Shown here: positions 4,430-32,198 of the stretch, one piece after another
How the letters are laid out: every line of letters begins with the position of its first letter
How positions within the stretch are numbered: position 1 is the first letter of the stretch
From: Deltaproteobacteria bacterium
GTDB lineage: Bacteria > Desulfobacterota > Binatia > HRBIN30 > JACQVA1
DNA: 64,000 nt
Direction of reading: 5' to 3'
Assembly (NCBI GenBank): GCA_016210005.1
Contig: JACQVA010000168.1
Location: 9,547 to 73,546 of the forward strand
Notes under the pieces: generated by a model
The model's input: only the letters and a program-made list of their open reading frames with translations
Told to the model about the DNA's origin: nothing
Database searches by the model: none
Program-made: the position numbers and the translations under genes

Positions 4430-4540
4430 CGATTGCGGATCGGCGATTGCGGGTTGCGGATTTGGCGAGACCGCAATGAGACCAGCGTTTTCATTGTTGC
4501 GAGGTGAGCACGCGCCGCCTTGCCACCTTACGGCCAGCTT

Positions 4541-5890
4541 ATGAGTGAGCCCGTTACGGTTATCGGCGGAGGCCTGGCCGGCTGCGAAGCGGCCTGGCAA
4601 TTGGCACGGCGGGGCGTGGCCGTGCGGCTGTACGAGATGCGCCCGGGGCGTACGACCGAGGCGCACCAGACCGATCGACTGGCGGAGCTGGTGTGCTCGA
4701 ACTCCTTTCGCAGCGCCGCGCTCGACAGCGGCGTGGGTTTACTGAAGGCGGAGATGCGGCGGCTGGGCTCTTTGATCATGAGCGTCGCCGATCAGGTGCA
4801 GTTACCGGCCGGCTCGGCGCTGGCGGTTGATCGCGAGCAGTTCGCCGCACGGGTCACCGCCGCAATTGCGGCCACGCCGGAGATCACGGTGGTGCGTGAG
4901 GAGTGTACCGCGTTGCCCGACGGCCTGGCGATCGTGGCGACCGGACCGCTGACCTCGGCGGCGCTTTCCGGCCAGCTGCAAGCGCTGCTGGGCGAGCACC
5001 ACCTCTATTTCTACGATGCCATCGCGCCGATCGTTACCGCTGAGTCGATCGACCGCGCGCAAGTGTTTTCGGCCTCGCGCTACGGCAAGGGCGGCGATGA
5101 CTACGTCAATTGCCCGCTGACGCGCGAGCAGTACTACGCCTTCGTCGATGCCGTGCTGCTGGCCGACAAGGTGCCGGCTAAGGAGTTCGAGCGCTGCGTC
5201 TATTTCGAGGGCTGCATGCCGATCGAGGAGATGGCCCGCCGCGGGCGCGACACGCTCGCCTTCGGGCCGATGCGGCCGGTCGGCCTGATCGATCCGCGCA
5301 CCGGCCGGCGGCCGTTTGCGGTGGTGCAGTTGCGCCAAGATGATCGTGCCGGCCGGCTCTACAACTTGGTCGGCTTTCAGACCAAGATGACCCACCCGGC
5401 ACAGCGGCAGGTTTTGCGTATGATTCCGGGCCTGGCGGCCGCCGAGTTCGTGCGCCTGGGCAGCTTGCACCGCAACACCTTCATCAACTCGCCGGCGTTG
5501 TTGCTGCCGACATTGCAGTTGCGCCGCCAGCCGCGTCTTTGGCTGGCGGGACAGTTGATCGGCGTCGAAGGCTACGTCGAGTCGGCGGCGGCGGGCTTGC
5601 TAGCGGGCCTCAATGTGGCGCGCGTGGTGCGAGGCAAGGCGCCGATCGTGCCACCGGCCACGACGGCGCTGGGGGCTTTGCTGGCATACGTCAGCGACCG
5701 CAGCCGGCGCGGGTTTCAGCCGATGAACGCCAACTTCGGGCTGTTAGCGCCGTTGCCCGGGGCTAGTCGCGGGCGTGATAAGCGCCGCCAGCTGGCTGAG
5801 CGGGCCTCGGCGGAGCTGGAGCAATGGCTGGCGCAGCACGGTTTGGCCGCCGTCGAGCCGGTGGCTGCGGCGGCGGTTGAGCTGGCGTGA
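4541..5890 (+). CDS. trmFO: Methylenetetrahydrofolate--tRNA-(uracil-5-)-methyltransferase TrmFO (Gid)
   Basis: FAD-binding [25 protein letters not shown] and FAGQ-like [16 protein letters not shown] motifs. ATG 4541 is preferred over TTG 4520. Confidence 0.94.
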
Positions 5891-8800
5891 GCGCGTTTAC
5901 CAGTACCGCTGCGGCAACGCTCGCCCGCTTCGGCGTCGATCCCCAGCGTGTGGCGCGCGCCCAAGCCGCCATCCCCCCGGGCGAATTTGGCGCCGCCCTG
6001 GCCGACCTGGTTGCCGGGGCGCCCGATCCGGTGTTGGCGCTGGCCAATTGGGAACGGGCGGCGCAGTGGCCGGAGGCGGTGGCGGTGGTGGCGAGTTGGC
6101 CGGCGGCGCGCTGGCCGCCGCTGTTCACGCTGCTTGGTGGCAGCCAGGTGTTGTCGGCGACCTTGCTGAGCGCGGCGGCGGCGTGGCCCGAGTCGTTTGC
6201 GGCCGTTTTGACGGCCGGCGCCGTCGCGGCCCGCGAGCACATCGGGGCGCTGGCGGCGGCGGTGAGTGCACCGTGGGAGGAATTCGCCGGCGTGCTGCGG
6301 CGCTATCGCAGCCGCGAGTACTTGCGCATCGGCTTGAGTGATCTCACCGGCGGTGTCGAGTTGGAAGCTACGCTGGCCGACCTCACGGCGCTGGCCGAAG
6401 GTGTGTGCGAGGCCGCGTACCGCTGGGCGCGCCACGCGGTGGCGGCGGACTTCGGCGCGCTCAGTCGGCCGGATGGCCGGCCCAACGGCTTCGTGGTCTT
6501 GGCCATGGGCAAGTTCGGTGGCGGCGAGTTGAACTACAGCTCGGATATCGACCTCACCTATCTGTATGAATCCGACCAGGGCGAGAGCGCGGGCGGGCCG
6601 CGCGGGCGGCTGACGGCGGCGGCGTTCTTTATCCGCGTTGCCGAGCTGATTACCCGCGCGCTGCAAGAGCGTACCGATACCGGGTTCGCTTTTCGCGTCG
6701 ATCTGCGGCTGCGCCCCGAAGGGATCAACGGTCCGATCACTAATTCGGTCGACAACGCCTTGCTCTACTACGAATCCTGGGGGCAGACGTGGGAGCGCAC
6801 CGCGCTGATTCAAGCGCGCCCGGTCGCCGGCGATCATGCCGTGGGTCAGCGGTTCCTGCGCGAGGTGCAGCCGTTCGTTTATCGGCGCTATCTCGACTTC
6901 GCCACCGTGGCCGACATGAAGGAGCTCAAGTCCCGTATCGAGCAACAACTGGGGCACAAAACGCGCGGCAACGTGAAACTCGGCCGCGGCGGTATTCGGG
7001 AGATCGAGTTCGTCGTCCAGGCGCTACAGCTGATTCACGGCGGGCGCGACGAGCGCCTGCGCGGGTCGGGCACCTTGCCCGGGTTGCAGCGGTTGGTGGC
7101 CGGCGGGGTGTTGCCGGCGCCGGAAGGGCAGGAGCTGGCGGTAGCCTATCGCTTCCTGCGCCAGGTCGAGCACAAGATCCAGATCGTTCATGAACGGCAG
7201 ACCCATAGCGTGCCCGCCGGGGAAGCCGAGCAAGAGACGTTGGCGCGCCGGCTGGGGCTCGCGAATGCCCCGGCGCTGTGGGCGGCTCTCGAGGCCCACC
7301 GAGCGCCCGTGCGGCGCGCCTTCGAGCAGCTCTTCTACGCGCCGCAAGCGGAGGTTCAGCGCGCTCGTGCCCCCGAGCTGGTGGCGCTGGTGGACGGCTT
7401 GGAGGATGCGGCGCTGGCGCAGGGCGAGCTGGGGCGGCTAGGGTTTGCCGACCCCGAGGCCAGTCATCGCGATCTGATACTGCTGCGCGACGGCTCGCCG
7501 TCGGCCCCGGCACGCCCGGGGCGAAAGAAGGCGCTGCGTGAATTGGCGCCGGTGTTGCTCCAGGCGGTGGTACAATCGGCCAATCCCGATCAAGCGCTGC
7601 ACAACCTGGCCACCTTCATTACCAACATCGGCGCGCGCACCAGCTTTCTGGCGCTGCTGCGCGAGAACCCGGCCACGTTGCAGATGCTGGTGCGCTTGTT
7701 CGCCGGCAGCGAGTTCCTCGCCCAGGCGTTCTTACGCCGCCCGGAGATGCTCGACTCGCTGGTGCGCGCCGATCTGGTGCGCGTGCGCGTGCCCAAGGCC
7801 GCCTTGGTCGAGGAGCTGGGCCGCCAACTGGCGCCTTGTGCCGATTTCGAGGCAGCTCTCGATGTCTTGCGCCGCTTTCGCAACGAGCACTTCTTGCGCA
7901 TCGGTATCAACGACCTGGAGCAGCTGCTGGCGCTCGAGGACGTCAGCAGCGAGTTGACGGCGCTGGCCGAAAGCTGTCTGGAGGCGGCGTACGATATCGC
8001 CGTGGCGGCGGTGCGCGAGAAATTCGGCCGCGCCGCGCCGCCGGGTCAGTTCGTGATCGTGGCCCTGGGCAAGCTCGGTAGCGGCGAGTTGAACTACAAT
8101 TCGGACTTGGACCTGATCTTCATTTACGAAGCGGGCGAGGAGGCGATTGCCCACGAGTTCTTCTCCAAGCTGGCGCAGCGGCTGTTGACGGTGTTGCAAG
8201 TACCGACGACCGAGGGGCTCGTCTATCGCATCGACACGCGGCTGCGGCCGTCGGGGCGGGCGGGGCCGCTGGTATCGTCGCTGGAGTCATTCCGGCGCTA
8301 CCACGAGCAGAGTGCGCGGTTGTGGGAACGCCAAGCGTTGATCAAAGCTCGGGCGGTAGCCGGGGACGCGGCGCTGGCGGCGGCGGTGGCGCCGATCATT
8401 GCGGACTTCGTCTATCGCCGGCCGCTGGCGGAGGCCGAGGTGCGGGAAATGGTGCACTTGCGCGGGCGCATGGAGCGGGAGCTGGCACGCGAGAGCGCCC
8501 AGCAGGTCAACATCAAGACCGGCCGCGGCGGCCTGGTCGATATCGAGTTCGTCACCCAGATGCTGCAGCTGCGTCACGGCAGCACGCACTCAGCGGTGCG
8601 TGTGCGGGCTACCTTGACGGCGCTGGCCGCGCTGCAATCGGCTGGGGTCTTGCCCGCTGCTGACGCTGAGCTGTTGCAGTCGGGTTATCGGTTCTTGCGG
8701 CGGTTAGAGAACCGCTTGCGGCTGGCGCACGACCAGCCGGTCGAGGTGCTCGATCGCGGCGGTATCGATTTGGGGCCGCTGGCACGCCAGCTCGGCCTCG

Positions 8801-9980: not shown

Positions 9981-10009
9981 TTGACACACCAGGGGTCGGG
10001 CAGTATAAA
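9981..10009 (+). promoter_or_regulatory. Near-consensus sigma70 promoter for paralog unit 1 (TTGACA-17 nt-TATAAA)
   Basis: TTGACA at 9981-9986, a 17-nt spacer, and TATAAA at 10004-10009. It lies about 80 nt upstream of ATG 10092. Confidence 0.65.
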
Positions 10010-10091
10010 CCTCGACCCTGTGATGGGCTGCGTGCGAGGGCGGTGGGTGTCCCAACTCATGCAATGGGGAAATTGGGGAAGGAGAGCCTGG

Positions 10092-11195
10092 ATGGGTCGC
10101 GAGCGGGGAGTGCGGGGCGCGTGGCTCGGAGCGCTGCTAGCGGCGGTGACGGCAGCCGCCCCGGCGTTGGCTGAGGTCACCACCGAGCGGCCCGGCTCGA
10201 TCGTGATCTTCCCCAAAATCATCGCCTCTGGCGGACGCGATACCATCATCCAGATTTCCAATGTCTCCAACTCGATGGTGCACGCCCATTGCTTTTACGT
10301 GAATGCGGCGCTGGGGCCGAATCCGGACCCGCTGGGGCAGCCCATACCACGCTGGCAAGAGGTCGACTTCGATATTTGGCTGACCAAACAGCAGCCCACC
10401 CACTGGATTGCCTCGGCCGGCCGGCGGGTGTACCCGCTCGATGATGAATGCACCTTGACCAATGCGGAGTGCAACGATGCCGGGCTCGATCCCGGACGTG
10501 TGCCGCCGTTGCCCCCGGATTTCGTTGGCGAGCTGAAATGCATCGAGGTGGATTCCTCGGGCGCACCAATCAGCGGCAACCACCTCAAGGGCGAGGCCAC
10601 ACTAGTGGTCGTCGCCGGTGGCGCCGACGCCGGTGATGCGAGCAAGTACAGCGCTCTGGCCGTGGTTGGCCTCGATACCAACGACGCCAACAATACCTTG
10701 TGCTTGGGGGGCGGAGTTACGGCGAAATGCCGCAGCGGTGCGGAGTACAACGCCTGCCCGCAGACCACCCTGGTCAACAACTTCGCCACCGGTGCGGATA
10801 ACCCGCAGCTGGGTGTCGATTCCGAGGTGACCACGGAGCTGACCATCGTGCCGTGCACGCAGGATTACGAGAGCCAGACGCCCGCCAGCGTGGTGGTGCA
10901 GTTCGATGTCTTCAACGAATTCGAGGAGCGCTTCTCCGCGAGCACGACCGTCACCTGCTGGGGAAACTTCGAACAGAGCGAAGTCAATTCGGTGGTGTTC
11001 GACGTTGACACGGTCGGAACTCGCTTCCTCCACACGCGCATGGCTCCGGCTACCCGAGACTACCCGGGATTCGTGGCGGTCGTAGAGGAGTTCCACGCGG
11101 TGGCGGGCGTCGGTACCGGGAGAGCAGCGTTCAACCTACACACGATCGGCGAGCGTCCCACGGCCGACGTGATCACCATCCCGGAAGGGCCGTGA
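10092..11195 (+). CDS. Secreted Cys-rich protein, paralog A1 (unknown family)
   Basis: RBS GGGGAAGGAGAG precedes ATG 10092. Signal peptide MGRERGVRGAWLGALLAAVTAAAPALA|EV. Nine Cys in the mature part. Full-length homology to the three downstream genes. Confidence 0.85.
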   Translation: MGRERGVRGAWLGALLAAVTAAAPALAEVTTERPGSIVIFPKIIASGGRDTIIQISNVSNSMVHAHCFYVNAALGPNPDPLGQPIPRWQEVDFDIWLTKQQPTHWIASAGRRVYPLDDECTLTNAECNDAGLDPGRVPPLPPDFVGELKCIEVDSSGAPISGNHLKGEATLVVVAGGADAGDASKYSALAVVGLDTNDANNTLCLGGGVTAKCRSGAEYNACPQTTLVNNFATGADNPQLGVDSEVTTELTIVPCTQDYESQTPASVVVQFDVFNEFEERFSASTTVTCWGNFEQSEVNSVVFDVDTVGTRFLHTRMAPATRDYPGFVAVVEEFHAVAGVGTGRAAFNLHTIGERPTADVITIPEGP

Positions 11196-11211
11196 GCAGG
11201 TGAGGACTCGG

Positions 11212-12534
11212 ATGATGATGAGGAGCCGAAGCATGCGGGTGGGGCGAGTGCTGGCTGCCGCAGCGGCAAGCCTGCTGCTGGCCGGAGTGGTGCGGGCAGA
11301 GATTTCGTCCGATCAGGCCGCCGCCATCGTGCTGCTGCCGAAGCTGACGGTGGATCTCGACAACGGCATTGATACCCTGGTGCGGCTGAGCAATACGTCC
11401 CAAAATCCGTTGACGCTGCACTGCTTCTGGGTTGATGCGACACCGCGCTGCGTTAACGGAACGGGCAACTGCATCGTTGCCATCGGCGCGCCCGATCGCT
11501 GCACTGGGCAGTGCGTTGACGATCGCTGGAATGAAACCGACTTTCGCATCGTGTTGACCGCCCGCCAGCCGATCGGCTGGCGTATCTCCCAAGGAATGCG
11601 GGATTGCAGGGCGACCGCCGACCCAGACCAGCCTTGTTTTCGACTCGACGGGATTACCCAGGTCGGACCGGGAGGCCAGAGCAACAAGGGGAGCAACATT
11701 CTGCCCGTGCCACATGATGAGTTCATCGGTTACCTCCAATGCATCGCAGTGGACGATACCGGCGCCCCGGTGGACCGCAACGATCTCAAGGGGGAAGCGC
11801 TGATCGTGCATTCCGGCCAGATCGGGGTGCCGACGCAGGTGGATGTGGAGGGCTACAACGGGATCGGCTTCCAGGCCATTGCCGGCCGCAACGATCGCGA
11901 CAACACGCTCTGTTTGGGCGGTTGCAGCCCGGGGCAGTGCCGGCTGACCCGCAGCCGGAGTTGCTTCTCGGACGCCGAATGCCCCGCCGGCGAGACCTGC
12001 ACCACCCAATGCGGGCGAAACGACAACTGCCCCAGCACCGGCCCAGAGTACGACGGCTGTCCCAACATCTTGATCCTCGATCATTTTTTTGACGGTGCCG
12101 TTGATCCGATCGCCGAGCTGCCGGTGGTGACCGACCTGACTTTGGTGCCCTGCAGCCAAGATTACCTGCGCCAGAGCCCGACGCCGACTACAGTACAGTT
12201 CTTGGTTTTCAACGAGTTCGAGCAGCGTTTTTCAACCAGCCGGCGGGTGAATTGCTTCAAGGAATTCCAGATTTCCAAGATTGATACAGATTTCAACGCC
12301 AACTCGATCTTCAGTGCGGCGGTGAATGGTACGATGACCGGGCAAACCCGTATCCGGGGGGTCGCCGACAGCGACGACGACCACGGCCATGCCATGGTGG
12401 GGGTTGCCCGGGAATTCCGCTGCGCCGCCGGCAGTCCGCTGGACAATTGCGCGGTGGTGAGCTCGGCATCCTTTAACCTGCATTCCCAAGGGCGGCGGCC
12501 CCAGGCCGACCTGATTTGGCTGCCCCCGGAATGA
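11212..12534 (+). CDS. Secreted Cys-rich protein, paralog B1 (unknown family)
   Basis: Starts 16 nt after the A1 stop; the exact start lies between 11200 and 11233. Signal peptide ...VLAAAAASLLLAGVVRA|EI. 21 Cys. Shares ordered motif blocks with A1/A2/B2. Confidence 0.85.
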   Translation: MMMRSRSMRVGRVLAAAAASLLLAGVVRAEISSDQAAAIVLLPKLTVDLDNGIDTLVRLSNTSQNPLTLHCFWVDATPRCVNGTGNCIVAIGAPDRCTGQCVDDRWNETDFRIVLTARQPIGWRISQGMRDCRATADPDQPCFRLDGITQVGPGGQSNKGSNILPVPHDEFIGYLQCIAVDDTGAPVDRNDLKGEALIVHSGQIGVPTQVDVEGYNGIGFQAIAGRNDRDNTLCLGGCSPGQCRLTRSRSCFSDAECPAGETCTTQCGRNDNCPSTGPEYDGCPNILILDHFFDGAVDPIAELPVVTDLTLVPCSQDYLRQSPTPTTVQFLVFNEFEQRFSTSRRVNCFKEFQISKIDTDFNANSIFSAAVNGTMTGQTRIRGVADSDDDHGHAMVGVAREFRCAAGSPLDNCAVVSSASFNLHSQGRRPQADLIWLPPE

Positions 12535-12572
12535 TTTCTTTGGCGGAGAGGGCTTCAAAGGTCGCTTTTGAC

Positions 12573-12601
12573 TTGACAAGTTGTGACCCCGTCGATATAA
12601 G
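12573..12601 (+). promoter_or_regulatory. Near-consensus sigma70 promoter for paralog unit 2 (TTGACA-17 nt-TATAAG)
   Basis: TTGACA at 12573-12578, a 17-nt spacer, and TATAAG at 12596-12601. It lies about 70 nt upstream of ATG 12671. Confidence 0.65.
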
Positions 12602-12670
12602 GCCGACACCTATTTGGGGGGTTTTGCGCCACGCCCATTTCGGCGCTGAGTGATTGAAAGGAGGAGGGTA

Positions 12671-13810
12671 ATGCGTAGGCAGCAAGAGCGAATCGGGTTC
12701 ATGAGGCGTGCGCTGGCGGTGGCGGGCGCGCTGGCGCTGCTGGCTGGCACAGCTGGAGCCGACGTGACGACCGAACGCAGTGCGTCGATCCTGGTGTTTC
12801 CGAAGGTGATTAGCACCGCCACGAGGGACACCATCGTCCAGATAACCAATACCAACAACTCGATGGTCCACGCGCATTGCATTTACGTCAATGGCGCGCT
12901 GGGACCCAATCCCAACCCGCTGCTGCCGCCCGTGCCGGTGTGGACCGAGCTAGATTTTGATATCTGGCTCACGCGTCAGCAGCCGACCGTCTGGATCGCC
13001 TCGGCAGGCCGCCCGGCCAACCCGACGGACGCACCTTGCGATCCGACCGTCACGGCCTGCTACGGCGCCGGTATTGACCCCGGCTTCGTACCGCCGGTTC
13101 CGGTGGACTTCACGGGTGAGCTGAAATGCATCGAGGTCGACAGTTCGGTGGTCCCGACCGCCGGCAACCACCTCAAGGGCGAGGCGACGCTGGTCGACAC
13201 CGTTACCGGTGACGTTGCCAAGTACAACGGAATCGGAATCCTAGCCGATCCCGACAGACTCAACGACGACAACTTCCTGTGCCTCGGCGGGGCTGAGTCG
13301 GAAAATTGCCCCGACGGCGCCGAATACAACGGATGCCCGAATATCTGGGTGCTCAATCACTTCTCGGAAGGGGCGCTAGACCCGATCGCCGAGAACGCTG
13401 GCGCTGCTGGCAGCAGCTCAGTGAACACCGAGATCACGGTGGTGCCATGCACGGAAGACTTCGAGAACCGGACACCGACAGCAGTTACGCTGCAATTCTT
13501 GGTGACGAACGAGTTCGAGACGACGTTTTCTGCCTCGACCACCGTCACTTGCTGGGGGAACACCACCCTAGAAGACATCAACTCGAGTGCCTTCACGCGC
13601 GCGGCTCTGAACACCGACTTCGCGCAGACGCGAATCCGCGCTGTCGGAGAGGGTGGCGTGCTGCTCGTCGCGGAGGAATTTCACTCCGCTACGATTCCAG
13701 CGGGGGGGGTCGCGCGAACGGCGTCAGCGGCGGTCAACGCGCACGTCGAGGGTGAGCGCGCTGGGCAGGATCTGATTACCCTGCAGCCGGACCTACGCAC
13801 AGAACCGTGA
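12671..13810 (+). CDS. Secreted Cys-rich protein, paralog A2 (unknown family)
   Basis: RBS AAAGGAGGAGGG precedes ATG 12671. Signal peptide ...ALAVAGALALLAGTAGA|DV. Nine Cys at positions equivalent to A1. Confidence 0.85.
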   Translation: MRRQQERIGFMRRALAVAGALALLAGTAGADVTTERSASILVFPKVISTATRDTIVQITNTNNSMVHAHCIYVNGALGPNPNPLLPPVPVWTELDFDIWLTRQQPTVWIASAGRPANPTDAPCDPTVTACYGAGIDPGFVPPVPVDFTGELKCIEVDSSVVPTAGNHLKGEATLVDTVTGDVAKYNGIGILADPDRLNDDNFLCLGGAESENCPDGAEYNGCPNIWVLNHFSEGALDPIAENAGAAGSSSVNTEITVVPCTEDFENRTPTAVTLQFLVTNEFETTFSASTTVTCWGNTTLEDINSSAFTRAALNTDFAQTRIRAVGEGGVLLVAEEFHSATIPAGGVARTASAAVNAHVEGERAGQDLITLQPDLRTEP

Positions 13811-13848
13811 CCGAGCCGACGTCCAGGGGATAGGGAAAGGAGAGGAAT

Positions 13849-15057
13849 ATGCGCAAGGTGAGATGGGAAAGCTGGACGATAGCGGTGGCCCTGCTGGCGA
13901 CCTCGCACGGCGTGCGAGCGGACGTGACCTCGGATCAGGCAGCGGCGATCGTGGTCTGGCCGCTGGTGAGCGTGAGCGACCCCGCTGCCCCAAGTCTTAC
14001 GCCGTATGCTGAAGATACATTGATCCAACTCAGCAACACGAGCAGCAGCCCGGTCGAGGCTCATTGCTTCTACCTGAACGCCAACAGCCATTGCACCAAC
14101 GACGGCAGTATCTGCCAGTACGGCGCTCAGTGCTGCGGCGGCGGCGGCTGTGGTCTCTGCCTGCCGGCGTGGAATGAAACCGACTTCAACATTGTTCTGA
14201 CGCCGCGTCAGCCGATCGCTTGGATCGCATCCGAAGGTCTGTCGGCGTTCTGTACGCCGACGCAAACACCCGGCGAGCGCTGCATTCCGCTAGACGGAAG
14301 AGCGCGGCTGGGTGCAGTGGATTCCTCGGGTCGCCCGACCAGCAATGCGGGAACGAGAATCCTGCCGGTGCCGGAAACGCCCTTTGTCGGCGAGTTGAAG
14401 TGCGTGGCGATCGACTCCGACACCGGTGAGCCGCTCTCTGGGAGCGGCGCTAACGTCCTGAAGGGCGAGGCTACGCTGGAGAACGCCACCGGCACGCGTC
14501 TGGATGTGGGCAAGTACAACGCCATTGGAATCCGCGCGCTGGCAGACCCGGTGGACGACGGCAGAGCCAATGTGCTGACTCTTCAGACCGAAGGCGGCGA
14601 GTACGAAGGCTGCCCCAACGTGCTCATCTTCAACCACTTCTTCGACTTTGCCACCAACCCGGCCAACACCGCTCTCCAGGTTATGACCTGGCCGGTATTC
14701 GTGCCGTGCACGCAGAATCTGCTGCAGCAGATCCCCGGTACCGCAATAGCTCAGTACCTGGTGTTCAACGAGTTCGAGCAGCGGTTCTCAACCAGCAACA
14801 CTGTGCCATGCTTCCGCGCCACCGGGCTGTCCAGCATTGACACCACGCAGCCGGCGAACTCGATCTTCAGCGTGGGAATCGCCGGCTCGTTGGTCGGGCA
14901 GACGCGCGTGACGCCGATCGGGGCTGGGCTGCTGGCAATCCAGCTTGAATCCCACGGCGTTGATCCGGCAACGATGCTCTCCACCGGCCAGCAGGCCGAT
15001 ACCAACGTGCATTACCAGGGCCGGCGCGCGTCGGCAGATGTAATCACGTTGCCGTAG
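13849..15057 (+). CDS. Secreted Cys-rich protein, paralog B2 (unknown family)
   Basis: RBS GGGAAAGGAGAGG precedes ATG 13849. Signal peptide MRKVRWESWTIAVALLATSHGVRA|DV. 13 Cys. B1 is its closest relative. Confidence 0.85.
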   Translation: MRKVRWESWTIAVALLATSHGVRADVTSDQAAAIVVWPLVSVSDPAAPSLTPYAEDTLIQLSNTSSSPVEAHCFYLNANSHCTNDGSICQYGAQCCGGGGCGLCLPAWNETDFNIVLTPRQPIAWIASEGLSAFCTPTQTPGERCIPLDGRARLGAVDSSGRPTSNAGTRILPVPETPFVGELKCVAIDSDTGEPLSGSGANVLKGEATLENATGTRLDVGKYNAIGIRALADPVDDGRANVLTLQTEGGEYEGCPNVLIFNHFFDFATNPANTALQVMTWPVFVPCTQNLLQQIPGTAIAQYLVFNEFEQRFSTSNTVPCFRATGLSSIDTTQPANSIFSVGIAGSLVGQTRVTPIGAGLLAIQLESHGVDPATMLSTGQQADTNVHYQGRRASADVITLP

Positions 15058-15080
15058 CTGCAAAGCCGAAAGTGCTTGCA

Positions 15081-15120
15081 AAAAGGGCGGGGCCCAAAGG
15101 GCCTCGCCCTTTTTGTTTTG
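15081..15120 (+). terminator. Rho-independent terminator closing the paralog array
   Basis: GGGCGGGGCCC-AAA-GGGCCTCGCCC forms an 11-bp GC stem with one G-U pair. It is flanked by AAAA upstream and followed by TTTTTGTTTTG. Confidence 0.8.
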
Positions 15121-15242
15121 TAGCAAGCTTGCACGCGGTGTGGACGCTGGATGTTGTGGCGTAGGACCGGTGAGGTGCGGCGGCCTCTCGATGTTACCTC
15201 GTGGGGGCGCTGAGCTGGGAGCCAGGTAGGCGCGAAGTGCGG

Positions 15243-15271: not shown

Positions 15272-15306
15272 GCGTGGGGGTGCACGCCGTATGGGCGGGA
15301 GGAACG

Positions 15307-15489
15307 ATGACCAGGGATGAGAAGCTGCGCTTGGCGGTCAGTGTGGCGCGCGCCGCTGCGCACTCGGGTGAGTATCGCCGGCTCGATAAGCTGATCGAGG
15401 TGGTTTTTCGCAAGCTCAACGAGCTCGTGCCCAGTGAGCCGGAGGCTGGATCACACGAGCGCGAGCAGGACAAGGAGTTCAAGCTCTGA
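15307..15489 (+). CDS. Small hypothetical helical protein (60 aa)
   Basis: GGGAGGAACG precedes ATG 15307. Sequence MTRDEKLRLAVSVARAAAHSGEYRRLDKLIEVVFRKLNEL... No recognisable family. Confidence 0.3.
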   Translation: MTRDEKLRLAVSVARAAAHSGEYRRLDKLIEVVFRKLNELVPSEPEAGSHEREQDKEFKL

Positions 15490-15516
15490 GCGGGCGTGGG
15501 GGCGAGTTGAGGCAGG

Positions 15517-15645
15517 ATGACGGAAGGGACGCGCCAGCTAGTGGTAGTATTCGGCCTCGGCATCCCGATTGCCGCGCTGCTGACGTATCTGCATTTTCGG
15601 ATCCTGCGCTATTTGCGTGAGCGCTCGCGAGGCTCAGGTCGGTGA
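15517..15645 (+). CDS. Possible 42-aa single-TM micro-protein
   Basis: Read by eye; it is below the ORF-track cut-off. Sequence MTEGTRQLVVVFGLGIPIAALLTYLHFRILRYLRERSRGSGR, with a hydrophobic core and a basic tail. Speculative. Confidence 0.2.
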   Translation: MTEGTRQLVVVFGLGIPIAALLTYLHFRILRYLRERSRGSGR

Positions 15646-15707
15646 GGCGGTGGTGCTGACTGGTGCAGTAGTCGGCGCCGGCACAATCTCAGATCAAGCA
15701 AGGTAAG

Positions 15708-16715
15708 ATGCCAAAGAAGACAGTGAAATCGAAGGTGGCGCCGGCGCGCAAAAGTGCCCCGGTGCGTAAGAAGGCGCTGGCCCGCAAGGCCGCACCTCCC
15801 AAGCGGGCGGCGGCTGCCGGCCGCAAGCGCGAGCGACCGTTGCGTAAAGCCGCGGTGCGGGAGCCGGCCGCGCGCCAACCCCGCCGCGCGATCTTCATCG
15901 ACGTTGAGAACACCAGCAGCGAGGCCGATCTGATGGGGGTGTTGGACGCTCTCAAGGTGGATCGGCTGGCGGAACCGACCGAGTTGACCGCGGTTGGCAA
16001 CTGGAAGTCTGTGGGGCAGCGTTTGGCGCGCCATCTGGCTGCCATGGGGGTGCAGCTTGTTCACAGTGCCCCGGCTACTGGCGTGCGCGATTGGAGCGAC
16101 CTCTGGATCGCTGTGGCTGCTGGGTGCTGGCTCGGTACCGCGCTGCCCGGCGACAGCCTCGAGGTTGTTTCCGACGACCGTGCCTTTGATGCCGTCGGTG
16201 ATGCCGCAGCGGCTCGAGGCGTGCGTTTTCAACGCGTTTCGTATCGAGCGGCGCCGGCCGCGGCAGAGTCACCGGCGACCGCCGAGGGCCGCCGGCGCCG
16301 CCGCCGGCGTGGTGGCCGCGGACGCCGTGCGGGGGAGACCCACACGCAGCACACAGCCGCGCCGGCGGCAGGCGCGGCTCCAATCCGCACGGTTACGGCC
16401 GCGGTGCCGAATCCGCCTGCGCGTGCGGCGACGGCAGCGGCAACGCGCCCGGAGTCGGCCCACGAAGAAGCCCACGCAGCTCCCCATGCCCAGATTGTTG
16501 CCGTGTTGACGCGGCTGGTTGGTGGAAGCTCGGAGCGTTGGGTGAATTTGGACATCCTGGCCAACGCTTTGAAGGCCGAAGGGTTCACGCGCCCGCCGGG
16601 ATCACCACGCCTGGTGACGAGGCTGCGCCGCATGAAGGACCTCGAAGTCAGCCCGAACGGGATGGTGCGCTTGGCCGGTGCGGCGCCAGGGGCGCAGAGT
16701 GACGCTGCGCCCTGA
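15708..16715 (+). CDS. NYN/LabA-like (PIN-fold) domain protein with Lys/Ala/Pro-rich basic N-tail, poly-Arg linker and C-terminal OST-HTH/LOTUS-like domain
   Basis: NYN-like blocks: AIFIDVEN...AVGNW...GVQLVH...DWSDLWIAVAAG...LEVVSDDRAFDAVGDAAAARGVRF. N-terminus is PKKTVKSKVAPARKSAPVRKKALARKAAPPKRAAAAGRK. C-terminus WVNLDILANALKAEGFTRPPGSPRLVTRLRRMKDLEV is LOTUS-like. Confidence 0.6.
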   Translation: MPKKTVKSKVAPARKSAPVRKKALARKAAPPKRAAAAGRKRERPLRKAAVREPAARQPRRAIFIDVENTSSEADLMGVLDALKVDRLAEPTELTAVGNWKSVGQRLARHLAAMGVQLVHSAPATGVRDWSDLWIAVAAGCWLGTALPGDSLEVVSDDRAFDAVGDAAAARGVRFQRVSYRAAPAAAESPATAEGRRRRRRRGGRGRRAGETHTQHTAAPAAGAAPIRTVTAAVPNPPARAATAAATRPESAHEEAHAAPHAQIVAVLTRLVGGSSERWVNLDILANALKAEGFTRPPGSPRLVTRLRRMKDLEVSPNGMVRLAGAAPGAQSDAAP

Positions 16716-16718
16716 GTG

Positions 16719-18023
16719 CTACTCGGCTTGCTTGCGCAGGAACGCCGGAATGTCGTAGGCGGCGTCGTCCTCTTCGGAGATCGTGAAACCCTGCACCTGC
16801 TCGACCCGTTGGTCCATGCGGTCGAGCGACTTAGGTCGCTGCCAGGTCGGCGACTCGGTGTCATCTATGATCGTGCCCATACGCACGATTCGACGCGGAG
16901 CCGCAGTCGTGGCTGGTGGCGGCGGCGACGGCCGGAGAGTTGCCGGCCGCGGTTCGGCTGGCGGCGGTGGGCTGGCGTCGTGCTGCGGCTGCGGCTCGCG
17001 GAGGCCGTTGCCGTTGGTGGGTGGCAGTGCGCTCAGTGGCGGCTGGCGCAGCTCAACGCCAGCCTCGCCAAACCCAGTGGCGATTACGGTGATGCGGATC
17101 TCATCGCCCATGCGTTCGTCAATCACCGCGCCGAAGATGATGTTAGCGTCGGCGTGCGCCTCCTCCTGGATGAGCGAGGCGGCGTCGTTGACTTCGTGCA
17201 GCGACAGGTTGGGGCTGCCGGTGATGTTGATCAGCACGCCGCGAGCGCCGTGAATCGAAATATCCTCGAGTAGCGGGCTGGCAATCGCCTTCTGCGCCGC
17301 CTCGATCGCCCGGTTCTCGCCGGTGGCGATGCCGCAACCCATCATCGCCATACCCATCTCGGACATGATCGCGCGCACGTCGGCGAAGTCGAGGTTGATG
17401 AGCCCGTGTACGGTGATGAGGTCGGAGATGCCCCGGACCGCTTGCAGCAGGATGTCGTCGGCCTTCTTGAAGGTATCCAGCAGTGAGGTGTTGCGGCCGG
17501 CGACGGCGAGCAGCCGCTGGTTGGGGATGGCGATGAGCGTATCGACCGCATCGCGCAGCTGCTTGATGCCGTCGTCCGCCTGTCGCATGCGCTTCTTGCC
17601 TTCGAACTGAAAGGGTTTGGTTACAACACCTACTGTGAGTATACCCAACTCCTTGGCCACGCGCGCTACCACCGGGGCGCCGCCGGTGCCGGTGCCCCCG
17701 CCCATGCCGGCAGTGATGAACACCATGTCGGCGCCGGCCAGAGTCTCGCGCAGGCGCTCGGCGTCCTCCAGTGCGGCTTCGCGGCCAACGTCCGGGTTGG
17801 CGCCGGCACCCAGCCCTTTGGTGAGGCGCTCGCCCAGCTGGAGCTTGGTCGGGGCCAAGCTCGCCCGCAGCGCTTGCATGTCGGTGTTAGCCGCAATGAA
17901 CTCGATCCCGGGCAGTGACGAGGCGATCATGGTATTGACCGCGTTGCCGCCACCACCGCCGATGCCCACCACCTTGATCGCCGCCCCCACCGCTTCCTTG
18001 CCCGCCAGCTCAATCATCGTCAT
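16719..18023 (-). CDS. ftsZ: Cell division GTPase FtsZ
   Basis: Contains [11 protein letters not shown], the tubulin signature [16 protein letters not shown], a Pro-rich linker and the C-terminal peptide DIPAFLRKQ. Start set at ATG 18023 (MTMIEL), preceded by AAGGAGG. The 116 codons upstream in the ORF track are artefact. Confidence 0.97.
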
Positions 18024-18084
18024 CCTCCTTCTCCCCGCGGATCCCACTACCACAACCGACCCGCCACAATAAGTTGGTTCTTCG

Positions 18085-19359
18085 TCAGAAGAATTCCTTG
18101 ATCCACTCCACCATGCGGCTACGAACCTTGCCCAATCTCCGCGTCTCCTCCGGCACCGCAGCGGCACTGTCGCGCGGTTTGGCGCCGTATGATACCAGGC
18201 CGACCGCGGTGGCGAACAGTGGGCCGGTGCTGTCGTCAAACGGCGGCGGGCCGCCGCCGTTGCCGGAGCCATTGCCCGAGTTGCCCGAAGTCGCCGGGCT
18301 GCCCAGCCGGGTCGGCATCTGAAATACCTGCTCCGCCAGCCCGACCGCGCCCGCAACCAGCGCCCCGCCACCGGTCAGGACGACACCGCTTGTCAGCGCC
18401 TGTTCGAAGCCGCTGCGAATGATTTGCCGGTGGGCCAGCGTGAAGATCTCCTCGAAGCGCGGCTCGATGATCTCCGCCAGCGTCTGCCGCGCCAGCACGC
18501 GCGGCGTGCGTCCGCCGACGCTGGGCACCTCCACTGATTCGGCGGGCTGTACCAGGCGTGCCAGTGCGCAGCCGTGCCGCTGCTTGAGGCGCTCGGCTTC
18601 CCGGAAGGGCGTGCGCAAGCCCGCGGCGATGTCGCTGGTGACGTGGTTGCCGCCGAGGCCGAGCACGGCGCTGTGCTTGAGCGCGCCCTGGCTGAAAACC
18701 AGCACGTTGGTGGTGCCGGCGCCGATCTCAACCAGCGCGACGCCGAGTTCGCGTTCCTCCGCGGTCAGCGCCGCCTCTGCCGCCGCCAGCGGGGCGAGCA
18801 CTAGATCGGCCACATGCAAACCGCTGCGCTGGCAACACTTAACCACGTTCTGGGCCGCGGCGATGGCGGTGGTGACGACATGCACCTTGGTCTCCAGGCG
18901 CACGCCCGACATGCCGAGTGGGTCTTTGACGCCGTCTTGACCATCGACCACGAACTCCTGCGCCAGCACGTGCAAGATGTCGCGATCGAGCGGCAATGCC
19001 ACCGCCCGCGCCGCGTCCAGCACGCGGGCGACGTCGCCTGGTGCCACCTCGCGGTTCTTCACCGCGACCACGCCGTGGCTGTTGAACGACTTGACGTGGG
19101 TGCCGCCGATGCCGGCGAAGACGCTGTGAATCTGGCAGCTAGCGGAAACCTCGGCCTCTTTGACGGCGCGCTCGATCGCTTGCACGGTAGCGTCGATGTT
19201 GACCACCATGCCCTTGCGCAGCCCGTCGCAAGGGGCGCTGCCGAGACCTGCAACTGTGACGGTGCCGTCGTGGACCTCGCCCACCACCGCCGCTACCTTG
19301 GCGGTGCCGATATCGAGTCCGACGAGCAATTCGCCCTTCTTGTCTCCCCGCTTAGCCAT
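18085..19359 (-). CDS. ftsA: Cell division protein FtsA
   Basis: Actin-fold motifs [10 protein letters not shown] and GGTHVKS, plus a C-terminal amphipathic helix [10 protein letters not shown]. Confidence 0.95.
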
Positions 19360-19361
19360 AA

Positions 19362-20222
19362 CTAGGCCCGCATTCCCGACTTCGCGCCGCTGCGCGGCGT
19401 CGTCCGCGTTTTGATCGGCGAGGGCCGTAGACGCACGACCACCTGATCAGAGAAGGTGGCGTCAAACAGGGCGACACGCGATTCCTGCCCTTCCCAGGCT
19501 GCCAGCACACGCTTGGTGCGCGCCAGTTTGGTGCGCCAATTACCCCAGCCAACCACTATCGGCACCGGCTGGCGCAGCGGGATGAGCGTGACGCCCCGGC
19601 GTGGATCGATGTTGACCTCGGAAAGGCCCGCGCCGCAGCCCTCGCGCTGACACAAGCGAATCATCCGGGCAGCGCGGCGTAGCATCAAGACGTCTTCCCG
19701 GTTGGCGGGCGTGATGCCCAAGCCCGTTATGAGCGGCAAGTCGCGGCTGTCATCTTCGCGCAACCGGTTCATCAGCTGTCCCGAGCGGTCCACAAAGTAA
19801 AGATCATCGAGCACTGCGATCGCTGCGGGAACGCGCTCGCGTACGCTGACGACGAGGCGGTGTGGAAAGTCGCGCCGCACCCGCACATCGGCCAGATCGG
19901 CATGGAGGCGCAGGCGCAGGCGAATAGCAGAGGGGTTGGCGTCCCAGATGCTCATGCCCGGGCGTAGACCGGCGGACTGCAAGAGTTGCTCGCGGCCCCA
20001 GCGGCTGTTGCCGCGTACCGTGACTTCGGTGAGCGCGAAGTAGGCATGGCTCTTGGTGGCAGTCCAGACCCGCGGCACGGCCCACCGCATCGTCGCCACC
20101 ATGCCGGCGGTGCACACCGTCAGACCCCCGATCAGCCCGATGCGACGCCATGGGATGTTGGTGGTGCGGCGCGAGCGCCGCCGTCGCGCACCTGCCGTGC
20201 GACCGCGAGCTAGGTGGCGCAT
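19362..20222 (-). CDS. ftsQ: Cell division protein FtsQ (POTRA)
   Basis: Basic N-terminus, one TM (IGLIGGLTVCTAGMV) and a POTRA-like FALTEVTVRGN. ATG 20222 overlaps the murB stop (TGATG). Confidence 0.8.
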   Translation of the reverse strand: MRHLARGRTAGARRRRSRRTTNIPWRRIGLIGGLTVCTAGMVATMRWAVPRVWTATKSHAYFALTEVTVRGNSRWGREQLLQSAGLRPGMSIWDANPSAIRLRLRLHADLADVRVRRDFPHRLVVSVRERVPAAIAVLDDLYFVDRSGQLMNRLREDDSRDLPLITGLGITPANREDVLMLRRAARMIRLCQREGCGAGLSEVNIDPRRGVTLIPLRQPVPIVVGWGNWRTKLARTKRVLAAWEGQESRVALFDATFSDQVVVRLRPSPIKTRTTPRSGAKSGMRA

Positions 20223-21147
20223 CAGGCGGGGTCCTCCCAATGGCCAACGAGTCTCACTTCCGGATCGAGGCGAACTCCCCACCGCTCCCACACGCTGCGG
20301 GCGATTTCGTTCATCAGCGCTCGCACCTCGGTCGCGGTGGCGCCGCCGAGATTGACGATGAAATTGGCGTGTTGCTCTGAGACCCTTGCGCCGCCGATGC
20401 GGCGGCCCTTGAAGCCGGCCGCTTCGATGAGCTCGCCGGCATGCCGGCCCGGCGGGTTCTTGAAGATCGAGCCGGCGTTGGGGTAGCCCAGAGGCTGATG
20501 AAGTTGGCGCCGCTGCTTGTACTCAGCCATCAGGTCTCGGATTGAGCCCGGATCCCCCGCCGCCAGACGCAAGCTGAGGTGGGTCACGATCCATCCGCGG
20601 GGCAGATCGAAGTGGCGGTAGCCGAAACTGAGGTCGGCTTTGGGCAACTGCTGCGGGCCGGTAGCAGCATCCACGCCTTCGATGGCTTCGACCACATTGG
20701 CGATCTCGCCGCCAAAGGCGCCGGCGTTCATGAGTAACCCGCCCCCCAGCAACCCGGGAATCCCTTCGGCAAACTCCAGCCCGGTCAGCCGGCGCTGCGC
20801 GGCTTCGACCACCAGCTTCTTGAAGGGCACCGCGGCCCCCGCTCGCACCTTGGTGCCGGAGCCGTTTGCTTGCCACTCCATGGCGGCGAAGGCCCGCCCG
20901 AGCTTGAGCACAATGCCCCGAATTCCGTTATCGCTGACCAGAATGTTGGTGCCGCCGCCGAGGACGAACAGCGGCGTACCCGCGCGCGCAGCGAGGGTGA
21001 GAACTTCGTGCACCTCCGCCACGCTGTCGGCCTCGATGAACGCATCGGCTGGCCCGCCAATGCGAAATGAGGTGTGCCGGCTGAGGGGCTCGCCGGTGCG
21101 CAGGCGCTCGCCGAAGGCGGCGCGCAGGGCGGTCAGGTCGGCTGCTG

Positions 21148-21163
<16 letters not shown>
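20222..21163 (-). CDS. murB: UDP-N-acetylenolpyruvoylglucosamine reductase
   Basis: Contains HTSFRIGGPADAF and the FAD-binding GGGTNILV motif, plus C-terminal SEQHANFIVN. Confidence 0.93.
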
Positions 21164-22546
<1,383 letters not shown>

Positions 22547-22554
<8 letters not shown>

Positions 22555-23623
22555 GGGTTCTCTCCTGGGCGATAACCTCGCGGCAGACGGCGAGTACGCG
22601 GGCGGCGGCATCGGGAATTGCCAGGCGGCGGGCGGCCGCAGCCATGGCCTGCAAGCCGTCGGGATCGGCGGCCAACGCGGCGACCCGCGCAGCTAGAACC
22701 GTGCCGGTGAGCTCGCGGTCGAGCAGCATCTGCGCGGCGTTGCCGTGCACCAAGACCTCGGCGTTGGCACGCTGATGATCATCGGCGGCGAAGGGGTAGG
22801 GGACCAAGATCGCCGGCTTGCCCAGGGCGGTGATCTCCGCCACGGTGGTGGCGCCCGCGCGGCAGACGACGAGATCGGCCTGGCCGTAAGCGCTACCCAT
22901 GTCTTCGATGAACGGACTCACCTCGGCGGTTACGCCGGCCTGGGCGTAACGCTGCCGCACCCAGCCGGCGTCGGCAGCGCCGGTTTGGTGGATTACCCTC
23001 AGCTCGGCGATTTGTCGCCGCAGTATCGCGGCTGCTTCGGTGGCGGCGACGTTGAGGCGGTGCGCGCCTTGGCTGCCGCCGAAAACCAGCAGGGTGAAAC
23101 CGCTGCCGGGTGCCGCCGCTGGTGCCGCCAGCGTACGCACCGGGTTGCCGGTTAGCGTGGTGCGCCCGGCGGGGAAGAACGGCGCGGCTTCGGTAAAGGC
23201 GGTGCAGACGCGCTGCGCCAGCCGTCCGAGGCGGCGGTTGGTCAATCCGGGATGCGCGTTTTGTTCGAGCAGCACCCGTGGCACCCGCCGCAACCAGGCG
23301 GCGAGCACCATGGCCGCCGAGGCATAGCCGCCGACGCCGACGACGATGTCCGGGCGGAAATCGCCCAGGATGCGCCAGGCGCGGACCAGCGCTACCGGCA
23401 GCTGTTGCAGCAGGTCCGCCACGCCGCGCCAGCCGCGGCCGCGCAAGCCGCGCATCGGCAGTGCTTCAAAGGGAAATGTCGTCTGGGGAATGACGCGCGC
23501 TTCGATGCCGTAGCGGCTGCCGACAAACAACACCGCCGCGCCCTCTGCGGCGGCCGCTTGCGCTACCGCCAAACCGGGAAACAGATGCCCACCCGTCCCG
23601 CCGCCGGCTACGATCATCCTCAT
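22547..23623 (-). CDS. murG: UDP-N-acetylglucosamine--LPS/undecaprenyl-PP-MurNAc-pentapeptide transferase MurG
   Basis: MRMIVAGGGTGGHLFPGLAVA begins at ATG 23623, 3 nt after the ftsW stop. It is 358 aa. The rest of the 820-aa track ORF overlaps ftsW in another frame. Confidence 0.94.
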
Positions 23624-23625
23624 CC

Positions 23626-26108: not shown

Positions 26109-26109
26109 C

Positions 26110-27189
26110 CTAGCGCAACTTGAGCGTGCTCAAGGCCGCCATCGCACAGATCGCGGAAACGACCCAGAACCGTACAATGATCTGCGGCTCCGGCCAGCCC
26201 TTCAGCTCGAAATGGTGATGAATCGGCGCCATGCGGAACACCCGCTTGCGCCGCAACTTGTATGAGCCCACCTGGATGATCACCGATAGTGCCTCGGCAA
26301 CGAACACGCTGCCCGCCAGCGGCAGCACCAGTTCGTGCTTGGTCAGCAGCGCCACAACGCCGAGCGCGGCGCCGAGCGGCAAGGCGCCGACGTCACCCAT
26401 GAACATCATCGCCGGGTAGGCATTGAACCACAAGAAGCCCAGCCCAGCGGCAAGAATGGCGGCGCAGAAAATGGCCAGTTCACCCGCCCCCGCCACGTAT
26501 TCGAGCTGCAAGTAATCGGCGTACTTGACGTTGCCGGTCACCCAGGCGAAGACCACGTAGGTTCCGGCGGTGGTCATCACCGGGCCGATCGCCAAGCCGT
26601 CGAGCCCGTCGGTGAGATTGACGGCATTGGAGGCACCCACCAGCACCAGGGCGGCGAAGGGGATGTACCAAAGCCCGAGGTCGGGGTGGAGGTCCTTGAA
26701 GAAAGGGAAGTTCAGGGTCGTGGAAAATCCCGGCTTGCAGTACAACACCGTTGCCGCCGCGAGCGCGACGCCGAACTGGCCGAGCAGCTTATAGCGGCCC
26801 CACAGGCCCTCCGCGCTCCGGCGCACCAGCTTGCGATAGTCGTCCATGAAGCCGATGACCGCAAACCCCAGCGTCACCAGCACGGCCACCCACACGAAGA
26901 GATTGCTCAGGTCGGCGAGCAGCAAGGTGGCGAGTATGAACGAGAACAGGATGAGAGTGCCACCCATGGTCGGGGTTCCGGCCTTGCCCAAATGGCGCTC
27001 GGGACCGTCGCTGCGAATGACCTGACCGATCTGCAACGCGGTCAGACGCCGGATCAGCCAAGGGCCGAGCATGAACGAAATGGTCAGCGACAGCAGTGCC
27101 GCCAGCAGCGAGCGAAAGCTGATGTAGCGAAAGACGTTGAAGACGCTGTATTCGGTGTGTAACGGGTAGAGAAGGTGATATAACATCAA
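26110..27189 (-). CDS. mraY: Phospho-N-acetylmuramoyl-pentapeptide transferase
   Basis: Contains [13 protein letters not shown] and APIHHHFE, in a polytopic membrane protein. Confidence 0.96.
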
Positions 27190-28655: not shown

Positions 28656-28658
28656 ATC

Positions 28659-32119: not shown

Positions 32120-32193
<74 letters not shown>

Positions 32194-32198
32194 CGTTC

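Follow-up and report, generated by a model that had tools for sequence, protein, structure and literature searches.

Obligately paired A- and B-type paralogs form an undescribed family of predicted exported beta-sandwich proteins in Candidatus Binatia

We analyzed a 64,000-nucleotide (nt) stretch, here called the window, of contig JACQVA010000168.1 from a Binatia genome. Four consecutive genes in it, A1, B1, A2 and B2, encode paralogs of two types, A and B, from a family that has not been described. We propose that A and B make up a co-expressed, heteromeric and non-enzymatic module for binding or assembly in the cell envelope or at the cell surface, and we give this reading as a whole a probability of about one half. 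That A and B associate at all, in an A:B heteromer, is predicted with somewhat greater assurance and seems to us quite likely, because their order and adjacency are conserved, they appear to be co-transcribed and sometimes translationally coupled, the pair has been duplicated as a unit, and the two proteins also occur as natural "Rosetta-stone" fusions.

All four open reading frames (ORFs) that the original prediction had drawn from the DNA alone are present where it placed them (Table 1), and its claim that the proteins are homologous along their whole length holds: A1, B1, A2 and B2 can be aligned from end to end. Global identity is 53% between A1 and A2, 47% between B1 and B2, and 40-44% between A and B, so A1/A2 and B1/B2 are mutual closest relatives, again as had been claimed. 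Scores against hidden Markov models (HMMs) of the family range from 240 to 600 bits, which is far beyond chance, and the models separate the two types (A1 scores 585 with the A model and 241 with the B model). The motif blocks listed in the prediction occur as written, except that A2 reads ILVFPK instead of IV.FPK. The proposed start codons are supported by Shine-Dalgarno sequences 5-9 nt upstream of them, by a database copy of A1 that is likewise 367 amino acids (aa) long, and by the A2 ATG and its ribosome-binding site, GAAAGGAGGAGG, which are kept in 29 genomes. The two pairs are 136 nt apart.

Table 1. Genes and signals of the A-B-A-B block, in window coordinates
Feature	Coordinates	Strand	Description
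P1, promoter of the A1-B1 operon	9981..10009	+	TTGACA-N17-TATAAA
A1	10092-11195	+	A-type, predicted exported two-domain beta-sandwich protein, 367 aa; signal peptide at about residues 1-27; 9 Cys
B1	11212-12534	+	B-type paralog, 440 aa, 21 Cys; Cys-rich loop insertions; starts 16 nt past the A1 stop
P2, promoter of the A2-B2 operon	12573..12601	+	TTGACA-N17-TATAAG
Conserved 5' leader of A2	12602..12670	+	extended Shine-Dalgarno GAAAGGAGGAGG
A2	12671-13810	+	A-type paralog, 379 aa, 9 Cys
B2	13849-15057	+	B-type paralog, 402 aa, 13 Cys; starts 38 nt past the A2 stop
Intrinsic terminator closing the block	15080..15120	+	GC-rich hairpin followed by a T-run

The N-termini of all four proteins show a basic N-region, then a hydrophobic core, then an AxA-type cleavage site, which makes the predicted export through Sec likely. 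Similar N-termini, resembling signal peptides, are found in 227 of 239 full-length homologs. There is no lipobox (L-x-x-C at the end of the signal peptide) in any of the four, and none has a cysteine within its first 60 residues. Cysteines inside the signal peptides of homologs are not lipoboxes either (12/107 match by chance). The four proteins finish at ...D(V/L)I(T/W)LP, have no further tail, and lack the MYXO-CTERM/GC-anchor (TIGR03901), which consists of a C-terminal Gly-Cys, a transmembrane (TM) helix and an Arg cluster. Residues 251-267 of B1 score 15.9 bits (E = 0.011) against the Myxococcus-type Cys-rich repeat TIGR04201, below its cut-off of 25 bits; this similarity is limited to a loop insertion outside the family core.

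The original prediction saw no recognizable family in these proteins, and profile searches agree. We found no matches for A1, B1, A2 or B2 in Pfam, NCBIfam, PADLOC or PHROGs, and no match in sequence profile searches of the PDB. When 105 diverse family members were scanned singly at E ≤ 10, there were only sporadic matches to Cys-rich loops (EGF_integrin and Dickkopf_N, each in at most 4 of the 105). Published analyses of Binatia genomes address metabolism only (PMC8262859), and the family is not described in the Binatia/Binatota literature. We conclude that the family is real and undescribed, being absent from the curated libraries that we searched and from that literature.

The family is large. 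A search with A1 found at least 1,664 clusters at 90% identity, and a search with B1 found at least 1,132. A profile search returned 1,836 representatives at 50% identity, including 642 at E ≤ 1e-30. All of the source names are "hypothetical protein," and the named source organisms are mostly Candidatus Binatia; the remainder carry other labels of metagenome-assembled genomes (MAGs), such as Deltaproteobacteria. To examine gene neighborhoods, we scanned GTDB species representatives, which gave 146 relatives, and kept 74 loci from 45 assemblies. Genomes contain at least four A-B pairs. Loci labelled Myxococcales, Margulisiibacteriota, Mycobacterium, Patescibacteria and so on have the same synteny or are on short contigs, so the non-Binatia labels are probably wrong (mislabelled or mis-binned). 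Among the oddly labelled MAGs (L010, L050, L052, L029, L051, L058, L061 and P0010, assigned to Margulisiibacteriota, Gemmatimonadota, Patescibacteria, Terriglobales, Mycobacterium or Kryptonia), only L010 has the Binatia synteny, and the others are short contigs or other sites. Given this probable mislabelling, the family has probably been seen so far only in the uncultured lineage Candidatus Binatia. Collections of plasmids, phages and IMG/VR sequences contained no homologs.

We typed every family ORF in the 74 loci with separate A and B HMMs. An A-type gene is essentially always followed directly, on the same strand, by a B-type gene, and we recovered 101 full-length pairs. The original prediction had left room for A-type and B-type genes that occur independently elsewhere; we did not see this. 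The family also includes single-chain A-B fusions, which are discussed below.

In about 35 loci, the A-B-A-B array lies immediately 3' of ilvE, sometimes with a third pair or an extra B gene. The upstream block, dprA-topA-trmFO-(glnE)-ilvE, is conserved even where the A1 ortholog is only ~55% identical. The downstream side is variable: it is the division and cell-wall (dcw) cluster in the window and gshB-rsmE-prmA or tpiA-pgk-gap elsewhere. Further solo A-B pairs are found at two other conserved sites of the same genomes. Across all sites the neighbors are housekeeping genes (also GDPD, cvpA and dnaG; ugd; arginine decarboxylase; ABC exporters). Clusters of "conserved neighbors" that came from crude gene calling (clusters 9, 11, 13 and 27-29) turned out to be antisense artefacts.

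First pairs are most similar to the first pairs of other genomes (the nearest neighbor in 33 of 37 cases for A and 30 of 37 for B), and second pairs to second pairs (25/31 for A and 25/31 for B). Because pair-1 and pair-2 genes group separately across genomes, the duplication that gave A-B-A-B predates the radiation that was sampled. More recently, L021 and L026 each gained a third pair through the copying of both genes together (distances of 0.008-0.017 for A and 0-0.04 for B). Both results fit the earlier proposal that the A-B pair was duplicated as a unit. Its companion proposal, that the block is an accessory insertion, does not hold, given the ilvE synteny in about 35 loci and the lack of homologs in plasmids, phages or IMG/VR. 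Given the synteny and the age of the duplication, the array is an ancient core locus rather than an accessory or mobile one, and a mobile element is unlikely. The block (10001-15000) does have lower G+C than its flanks (0.60-0.64 vs 0.65-0.70) and lower G+C at third codon positions (0.76-0.78 vs 0.80-0.87). Given the conserved synteny, we do not take these lower values as evidence that the block is foreign; codon use linked to expression, or the amino-acid composition, may account for them.

At five loci of one solo-pair type (L053, L056, L057, L064 and L071, at about 4300-8200), a secreted protein of ~900-990 aa is encoded 5' of the A-B pair. It has ~44 cysteines, PD40 repeats and a Cys-rich region resembling an EB module. 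It is followed by a second, usually shorter ORF of the same cluster (319-704 aa) and by the gene for UDP-glucose dehydrogenase (ugd). Because the gap from ugd to A is ~300 nt, these two genes are not in one operon.

The layout of signals around the genes points to two operons in tandem, one P1-A1-B1 and the other P2-A2-B2-terminator, with one A-type and one B-type gene apiece. The outer coordinates of the original prediction, 9981 and 15120, are the -35 box of P1 and the end of the terminator. The terminator region (15070-15125) folds at -35.7 kcal/mol (z = -5.55), and we found no comparable hairpin 3' of B1. We scanned the related loci for promoters, counting as a match at least 10 of 12 bases of the near-consensus TTGACA-N17-TATAAG, with random windows as controls. 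Matches were found upstream of the first-pair A gene in 39 of 42 loci and of the second-pair A gene in 35 of 41, as compared to 2.8% of random windows and none of 122 B genes. A generic scan of the window for consensus promoters reported none; it missed P1 and P2, whose -10 boxes lack the T that it requires at position 6. Upstream of A2, nucleotide conservation is at least 80% over the whole region, leader included, in 29 genomes whose proteins are only ~50-60% identical. We found no convincing support for a conserved RNA structure in the A2 leader (RNAalifold gave -1.85 kcal/mol), and there was no Rfam match within the block.

The gap from the A stop to the B start has a median of ~28 nt (n=115), and the gap from B to the next A is ~129 nt (n=46). 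In the solo pairs of L053, L056 and L064 (at about 11221, 11260 and 11266), the A stop and the B start overlap by 4 nt, a sequence arrangement that suggests translational coupling. Solo pairs mostly lack the TTGACA-N17-TATAAG promoter, which is present in 6 of 28. Given the placement of the promoters and the short or overlapping gaps from A to B, we consider the A-B pair to be an operon with a conserved near-consensus promoter. The co-expression of A with B that was first suggested from the gaps alone is thus also indicated by promoters that are conserved before A genes only and by the single terminator after B2.

Three proteins (P0249, P0387 and P0388, 48-49% identical to each other) contain an A module followed by a B module in one chain. 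One such single-chain fusion is on a 2.6-Mb contig. In addition, six lipoproteins consist, in order, of a lipobox, beta-propellers (of the YncE, Vgb_lyase or NHL type), Pro/Thr-rich (PT) linkers, the N-domain of A, and a full B. The A-then-B order in the fusions mirrors the gene order. Some proteins of 700-1,770 aa with FG-GAP, CARDB and EF-hand domains end in a single A-type module, and other members combine a B module with Myxococcus-type Cys repeats and dockerin-like pairs of EF-hands. Some of the distant multidomain members carry a lipobox. From their sequences, these fusion partners are typical of extracellular or surface proteins.

Two related observations stand apart from these fusions. 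In P0241 and P0250 (L080 8001-10394), a single ORF encodes a B module, a PT linker, a GC-TM-Arg tail, and an A module with its own signal peptide. The tail looks like MYXO-CTERM by eye, and it has no NCBIfam match at E ≤ 0.1. These are either fused, membrane-anchored proteins or two genes without an intervening stop codon. Also, in L079 (10907-14416), the gene next after the one for the P0388 fusion encodes 1,169 aa and has only a faint match to the Lactonase beta-propeller, which recalls the lipoproteins that join beta-propellers to A' (a partial A) and B.

AlphaFold 2 (AF2) gave confident models of A1 (mean predicted local distance difference test [pLDDT] 87.6, predicted TM-score [pTM] 0.84) and of B2 (pLDDT 85.9, pTM 0.85). 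Both are all-beta, with roughly 22 strands after the helix of the signal peptide; a low-confidence stretch separates that N-terminal helix from the first strand. The truncated fusions show where the two domains divide: there is an N-domain at about HMM positions 25-221, and a C-domain. We rejected an origin of the two domains by internal duplication, since no repeat relationship between them could be detected (hhalign probability 0.07).

Foldseek found no global match for either model: no TM-score normalized by the query exceeded 0.26 in the PDB or 0.23 in BFVD. The lists consist of generic tandem beta-sandwich or jelly-roll proteins, with root-mean-square deviations (rmsd) of at least ~20 Å: capsids of comoviruses, picornaviruses and infectious bursal disease virus (IBDV), factor XIII barrels, arrestin/Vps26, and RbmA. 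The top 50 matches for A1 and B2 include no jelly-roll hydrolases, lyases, cupredoxins, haemolysin or leukocidin. We also rejected an identity as viral jelly-roll capsids, as the matches to cowpea mosaic virus (CPMV), picornavirus-like and IBDV proteins had TM-scores of at most 0.18 and rmsd of at least ~20 Å, and there was no PHROGs match. A confident all-beta architecture that has no global counterpart in the PDB is of interest in itself.

The sole Foldseek match with a probability of 1.0, which was obtained independently for A1 and for B2, was to TM1070 (PDB 1nc7). TM1070, from Thermotoga, is orthologous to the sensory rhodopsin transducer of Anabaena (ASRT) and belongs to the ASRAH superfamily of eight-stranded beta-sandwiches, which is predicted to bind sugars and is related to CBM4 by permutation (PMC2739507). 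A conserved Trp in strand 1 and a conserved Asn in strand 2 are characteristic of ASRT/ASRAH (PMC2739507). Across the 1nc7 chains, TM-scores normalized by the target (TMt) were 0.67-0.76 for A1 and 0.63-0.66 for B2. The superposition covers ~116 of roughly 340 mature residues, or one domain. At the sequence level, none of the 105 members matched DUF1362 (ASRT/ASRAH), even at E ≤ 10. As far as the models go, the likeness to TM1070 is a fold resemblance of one domain and not family membership.

We counted the conservation of cysteines over 240 A and B sequences. Cysteines are invariant or nearly so at A1 positions 67, 120, 127, 150, 222 and 255, and 98% conserved at position 289. Because these seven conserved core cysteines are an odd number, one thiol may be free. 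The A-types have an extra pair (204/213), the B-types have four extra cysteines in a loop, and loops hold Cys-rich EGF-like or Myxococcus-type inserts. Cys 289, in the motif VxC(W/F), behaves differently in fused and unfused proteins. It is kept in canonical unfused A and B; in unfused pairs the last conserved cysteine is present in both proteins in 97 cases, lost from one in 3 and lost from both in 1, so losses are rare. In the single-chain fusions it is missing at each equivalent position that we could locate: both halves have lost it in two of the three, and so has the B half of P0387, the one half of that protein in which the position could be found. The B halves of all six lipoprotein fusions lack it as well. 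This pattern fits a predicted disulfide between the subunits via Cys 289 that would be dispensable once A and B are fused, but the fused forms are also divergent subfamilies. The counts of cysteine parity were made over trimmed sequences and are noisy. Apart from cysteines, at least 12 polar or acidic residues are invariant and common to A and B among the 105 diverse members: E90, Q101, D154, N163, E168, E218, Y219, E276, E278, S282, E333 and D359. The invariant residues as a whole are mostly acidic and aromatic.

Our proposal is as follows. Each protein would leave the cytoplasm via Sec and fold outside it into two beta-sandwich domains stabilized by disulfides. One mRNA would serve for the translation of both A and B, whose stop and start codons lie close together or overlap, and the two proteins would most likely combine in a 1:1 ratio as an A:B heteromer, which could be a dimer or a polymer of alternating subunits. 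The genomic features expected of an obligate heteromer, namely conserved adjacency and order, co-transcription and fused forms, are all found in this family. The heteromer would then act in binding or assembly, as a non-enzymatic module of the envelope or surface, and the same module is seen as a single-chain A-B tandem and at the C-terminus of FG-GAP, beta-propeller, dockerin-like and lipoprotein surface proteins. Three points suggest binding or assembly: no catalytic signature was found, one domain is ASRT-like, and adhesin-like proteins carry the module as an appendage at their C-terminus. Our best guess for the ligand is a glycan, possibly bound in a Ca2+-dependent manner, because one domain resembles a predicted sugar binder and because the invariant residues are mostly acidic and aromatic.

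Several observations weigh against this proposal. The similarity to TM1070 (E about 4e-4 to 3e-3) concerns one domain and is not accompanied by sequence similarity. The invariant polar residues would also fit an enzyme, as would the high conservation of the proteins (55-77% across the class). To reach the surface of a diderm cell, the proteins would need a step past Sec, and none is encoded nearby. The neighboring genes give no functional clue across the loci. Finally, the distance matrices of A and B are correlated (r = 0.78-0.90), but this correlation is confounded by shared phylogeny.

A more specific version holds that A and B self-assemble, as subunits, into a structure on the surface, for instance an S-layer-like lattice, a sheath or a fibre, onto which the larger module-bearing proteins dock. 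The near-consensus conserved promoters, the leader and the strong Shine-Dalgarno sequences suggest very high constitutive expression. Also, the proteins in their mature form are acidic (net charge -17 to -28), genomes have multiple paralogous pairs, the module is C-terminal on large surface proteins, as expected of an anchoring domain, and S-layers made from two genes are known (TfsA/TfsB). However, S-layer proteins are typically nearly free of cysteine and fast-evolving, whereas the Binatia proteins are rich in cysteine (9-21 Cys) and highly conserved; scans with Pfam and NCBIfam detected no S-layer homology (SLH) or other S-layer domain; and polymerization of A and B is conjectural. We regard such a structure as a speculative possibility. 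Equally speculative is its fullest form, in which A:B heterodimers, possibly locked by a disulfide via the VxC(W/F) cysteine, would rank among the cell's most highly expressed proteins, build a previously unrecognized lattice or matrix specific to Binatia and dock FG-GAP, beta-propeller and dockerin-like proteins through the same module. If true, a new fold family would here define a bacterial surface architecture of a new kind.

It seems rather unlikely that A and B are instead a two-subunit extracytoplasmic enzyme or metal-binding protein (glycan-active, redox or cation-binding) in which both subunits have kept active-site residues. Such a protein would explain the invariant polar and acidic residues that A and B share, the alternating NEFE motif on a beta strand, the nearly invariant H66-C67 pair, and a possible free thiol. 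But even at E ≤ 10, searches of Pfam, NCBIfam and the PDB over the 105 members brought up no catalytic family; the top Foldseek matches lack the jelly-roll hydrolases, lyases and cupredoxins; there are too few conserved histidines for known Cu sites; and C-terminal appendages on adhesin-like proteins are more typically binding modules.

We doubt that A and B do not interact, with adjacency being left over from an old tandem duplication whose copies diverged in ligand specificity. The two proteins are homologous with the same predicted fold, and tandem paralogs are common. On the other hand, a mere relic would hardly explain why the A-to-B order is found in 74 of 74 loci and at three or more separate sites per genome, why the pair was re-duplicated as a unit, why some pairs have overlaps that suggest translational coupling, why there is a promoter before A only, or why the fusions keep the same order. 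A bi-component secreted toxin or pore-former, like the S and F components of staphylococcal leukocidin, has a similar layout (adjacent, paralogous, Sec-exported, all-beta proteins of 35-45 kDa) but is very unlikely, as there is no Pfam match to Leukocidin (PF07968), aerolysin or Toxin_10, no haemolysin-like Foldseek match, and no homolog on plasmids or in phages, and the locus is core, syntenic and class-wide, with several pairs per genome, instead of variable and accessory.

Returning to the heteromeric module, its abundance (~1,800 clusters and at least four pairs per genome), its class-wide syntenic core locus and its near-consensus promoters make it a likely major and lineage-defining component of the envelope. 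Binatia are globally abundant in soils, sediments and sponges, yet they are uncultured and their cell biology is obscure. The family is also a clean new case of obligately paired paralogs with natural fusions that predict an interface. It could be used as a lineage marker, as a target for metaproteomics or for antibody- or lectin-style capture of Binatia, or as a tractable target for structural studies.

Elsewhere in the window, a + strand gene between B2 and ftsZ (15708-16715) encodes a protein of 335 aa whose N-terminus is rich in Lys, Arg and Ala and which has an NYN (PIN-like nuclease) domain. It is preceded by two short ORFs in 15300-15700, and relatives do not share this arrangement downstream of B2. 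Long minus-strand ORFs extend over 16719-30836, beginning with ftsZ (16719-18371) and ftsA (18085-19359). Going by ftsZ and ftsA only, this region looks like the dcw cluster. The real start of ftsZ is probably further downstream, because its longest ORF (550 aa, with a GTG start) overlaps ftsA by ~290 nt. The only RNA genes detected in the window are tRNA-Lys (CTT) at 467-540 and tRNA-Met (CAT) at 32120-32194.

No described system consists of an obligate pair of paralogs present in at least four copies per genome within one lineage. The closest parallels are the following. SoxY and SoxZ form an obligatory periplasmic heterodimer of beta-sandwich proteins, in which one conserved cysteine is the functional thiol. 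As in the Binatia family, two beta-sandwich proteins are encoded by adjacent genes. Unlike A and B, SoxY and SoxZ are single-domain proteins of ~110-150 aa that are not paralogs of comparable length, and the Binatia family has neither sequence matches to them nor a sox gene context.

Leukocidins and gamma-haemolysin (S and F components) are also two paralogous, Sec-exported, all-beta proteins from adjacent co-transcribed genes. Leukocidins act as hetero-oligomers; for A and B, a hetero-oligomer is predicted. The Binatia proteins differ in having no sequence or fold match to leukocidins, in being rich in cysteine, and in being encoded at core, syntenic loci with at least four pairs per genome.

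Two-gene S-layers include TfsA/TfsB of Tannerella and the high- and low-molecular-weight (HMW/LMW) SlpA of C. difficile. They share with the Binatia family the co-expressed pairs of exported, beta-rich proteins, the strong promoters, and the surface proteins with a common anchoring module. The two proteins of such S-layers come together on the surface, which A and B might also do. In contrast to A and B, S-layer proteins lack cysteines and diverge quickly; the Binatia family has no detected S-layer or SLH domain, and a lattice is only conjectural for it.

The last parallel is structural. The ASRT itself is an intracellular homotetramer, and the Binatia family differs from ASRT/TM1070 in lacking sequence similarity and in having two domains, conserved disulfides (as predicted from the cysteines) and obligate A/B pairing. 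Nevertheless, one domain of A1 and one of B2 superpose on TM1070, and extracellular ASRAH domains are found in tandem in secreted or lipoprotein surface proteins (PMC2739507).

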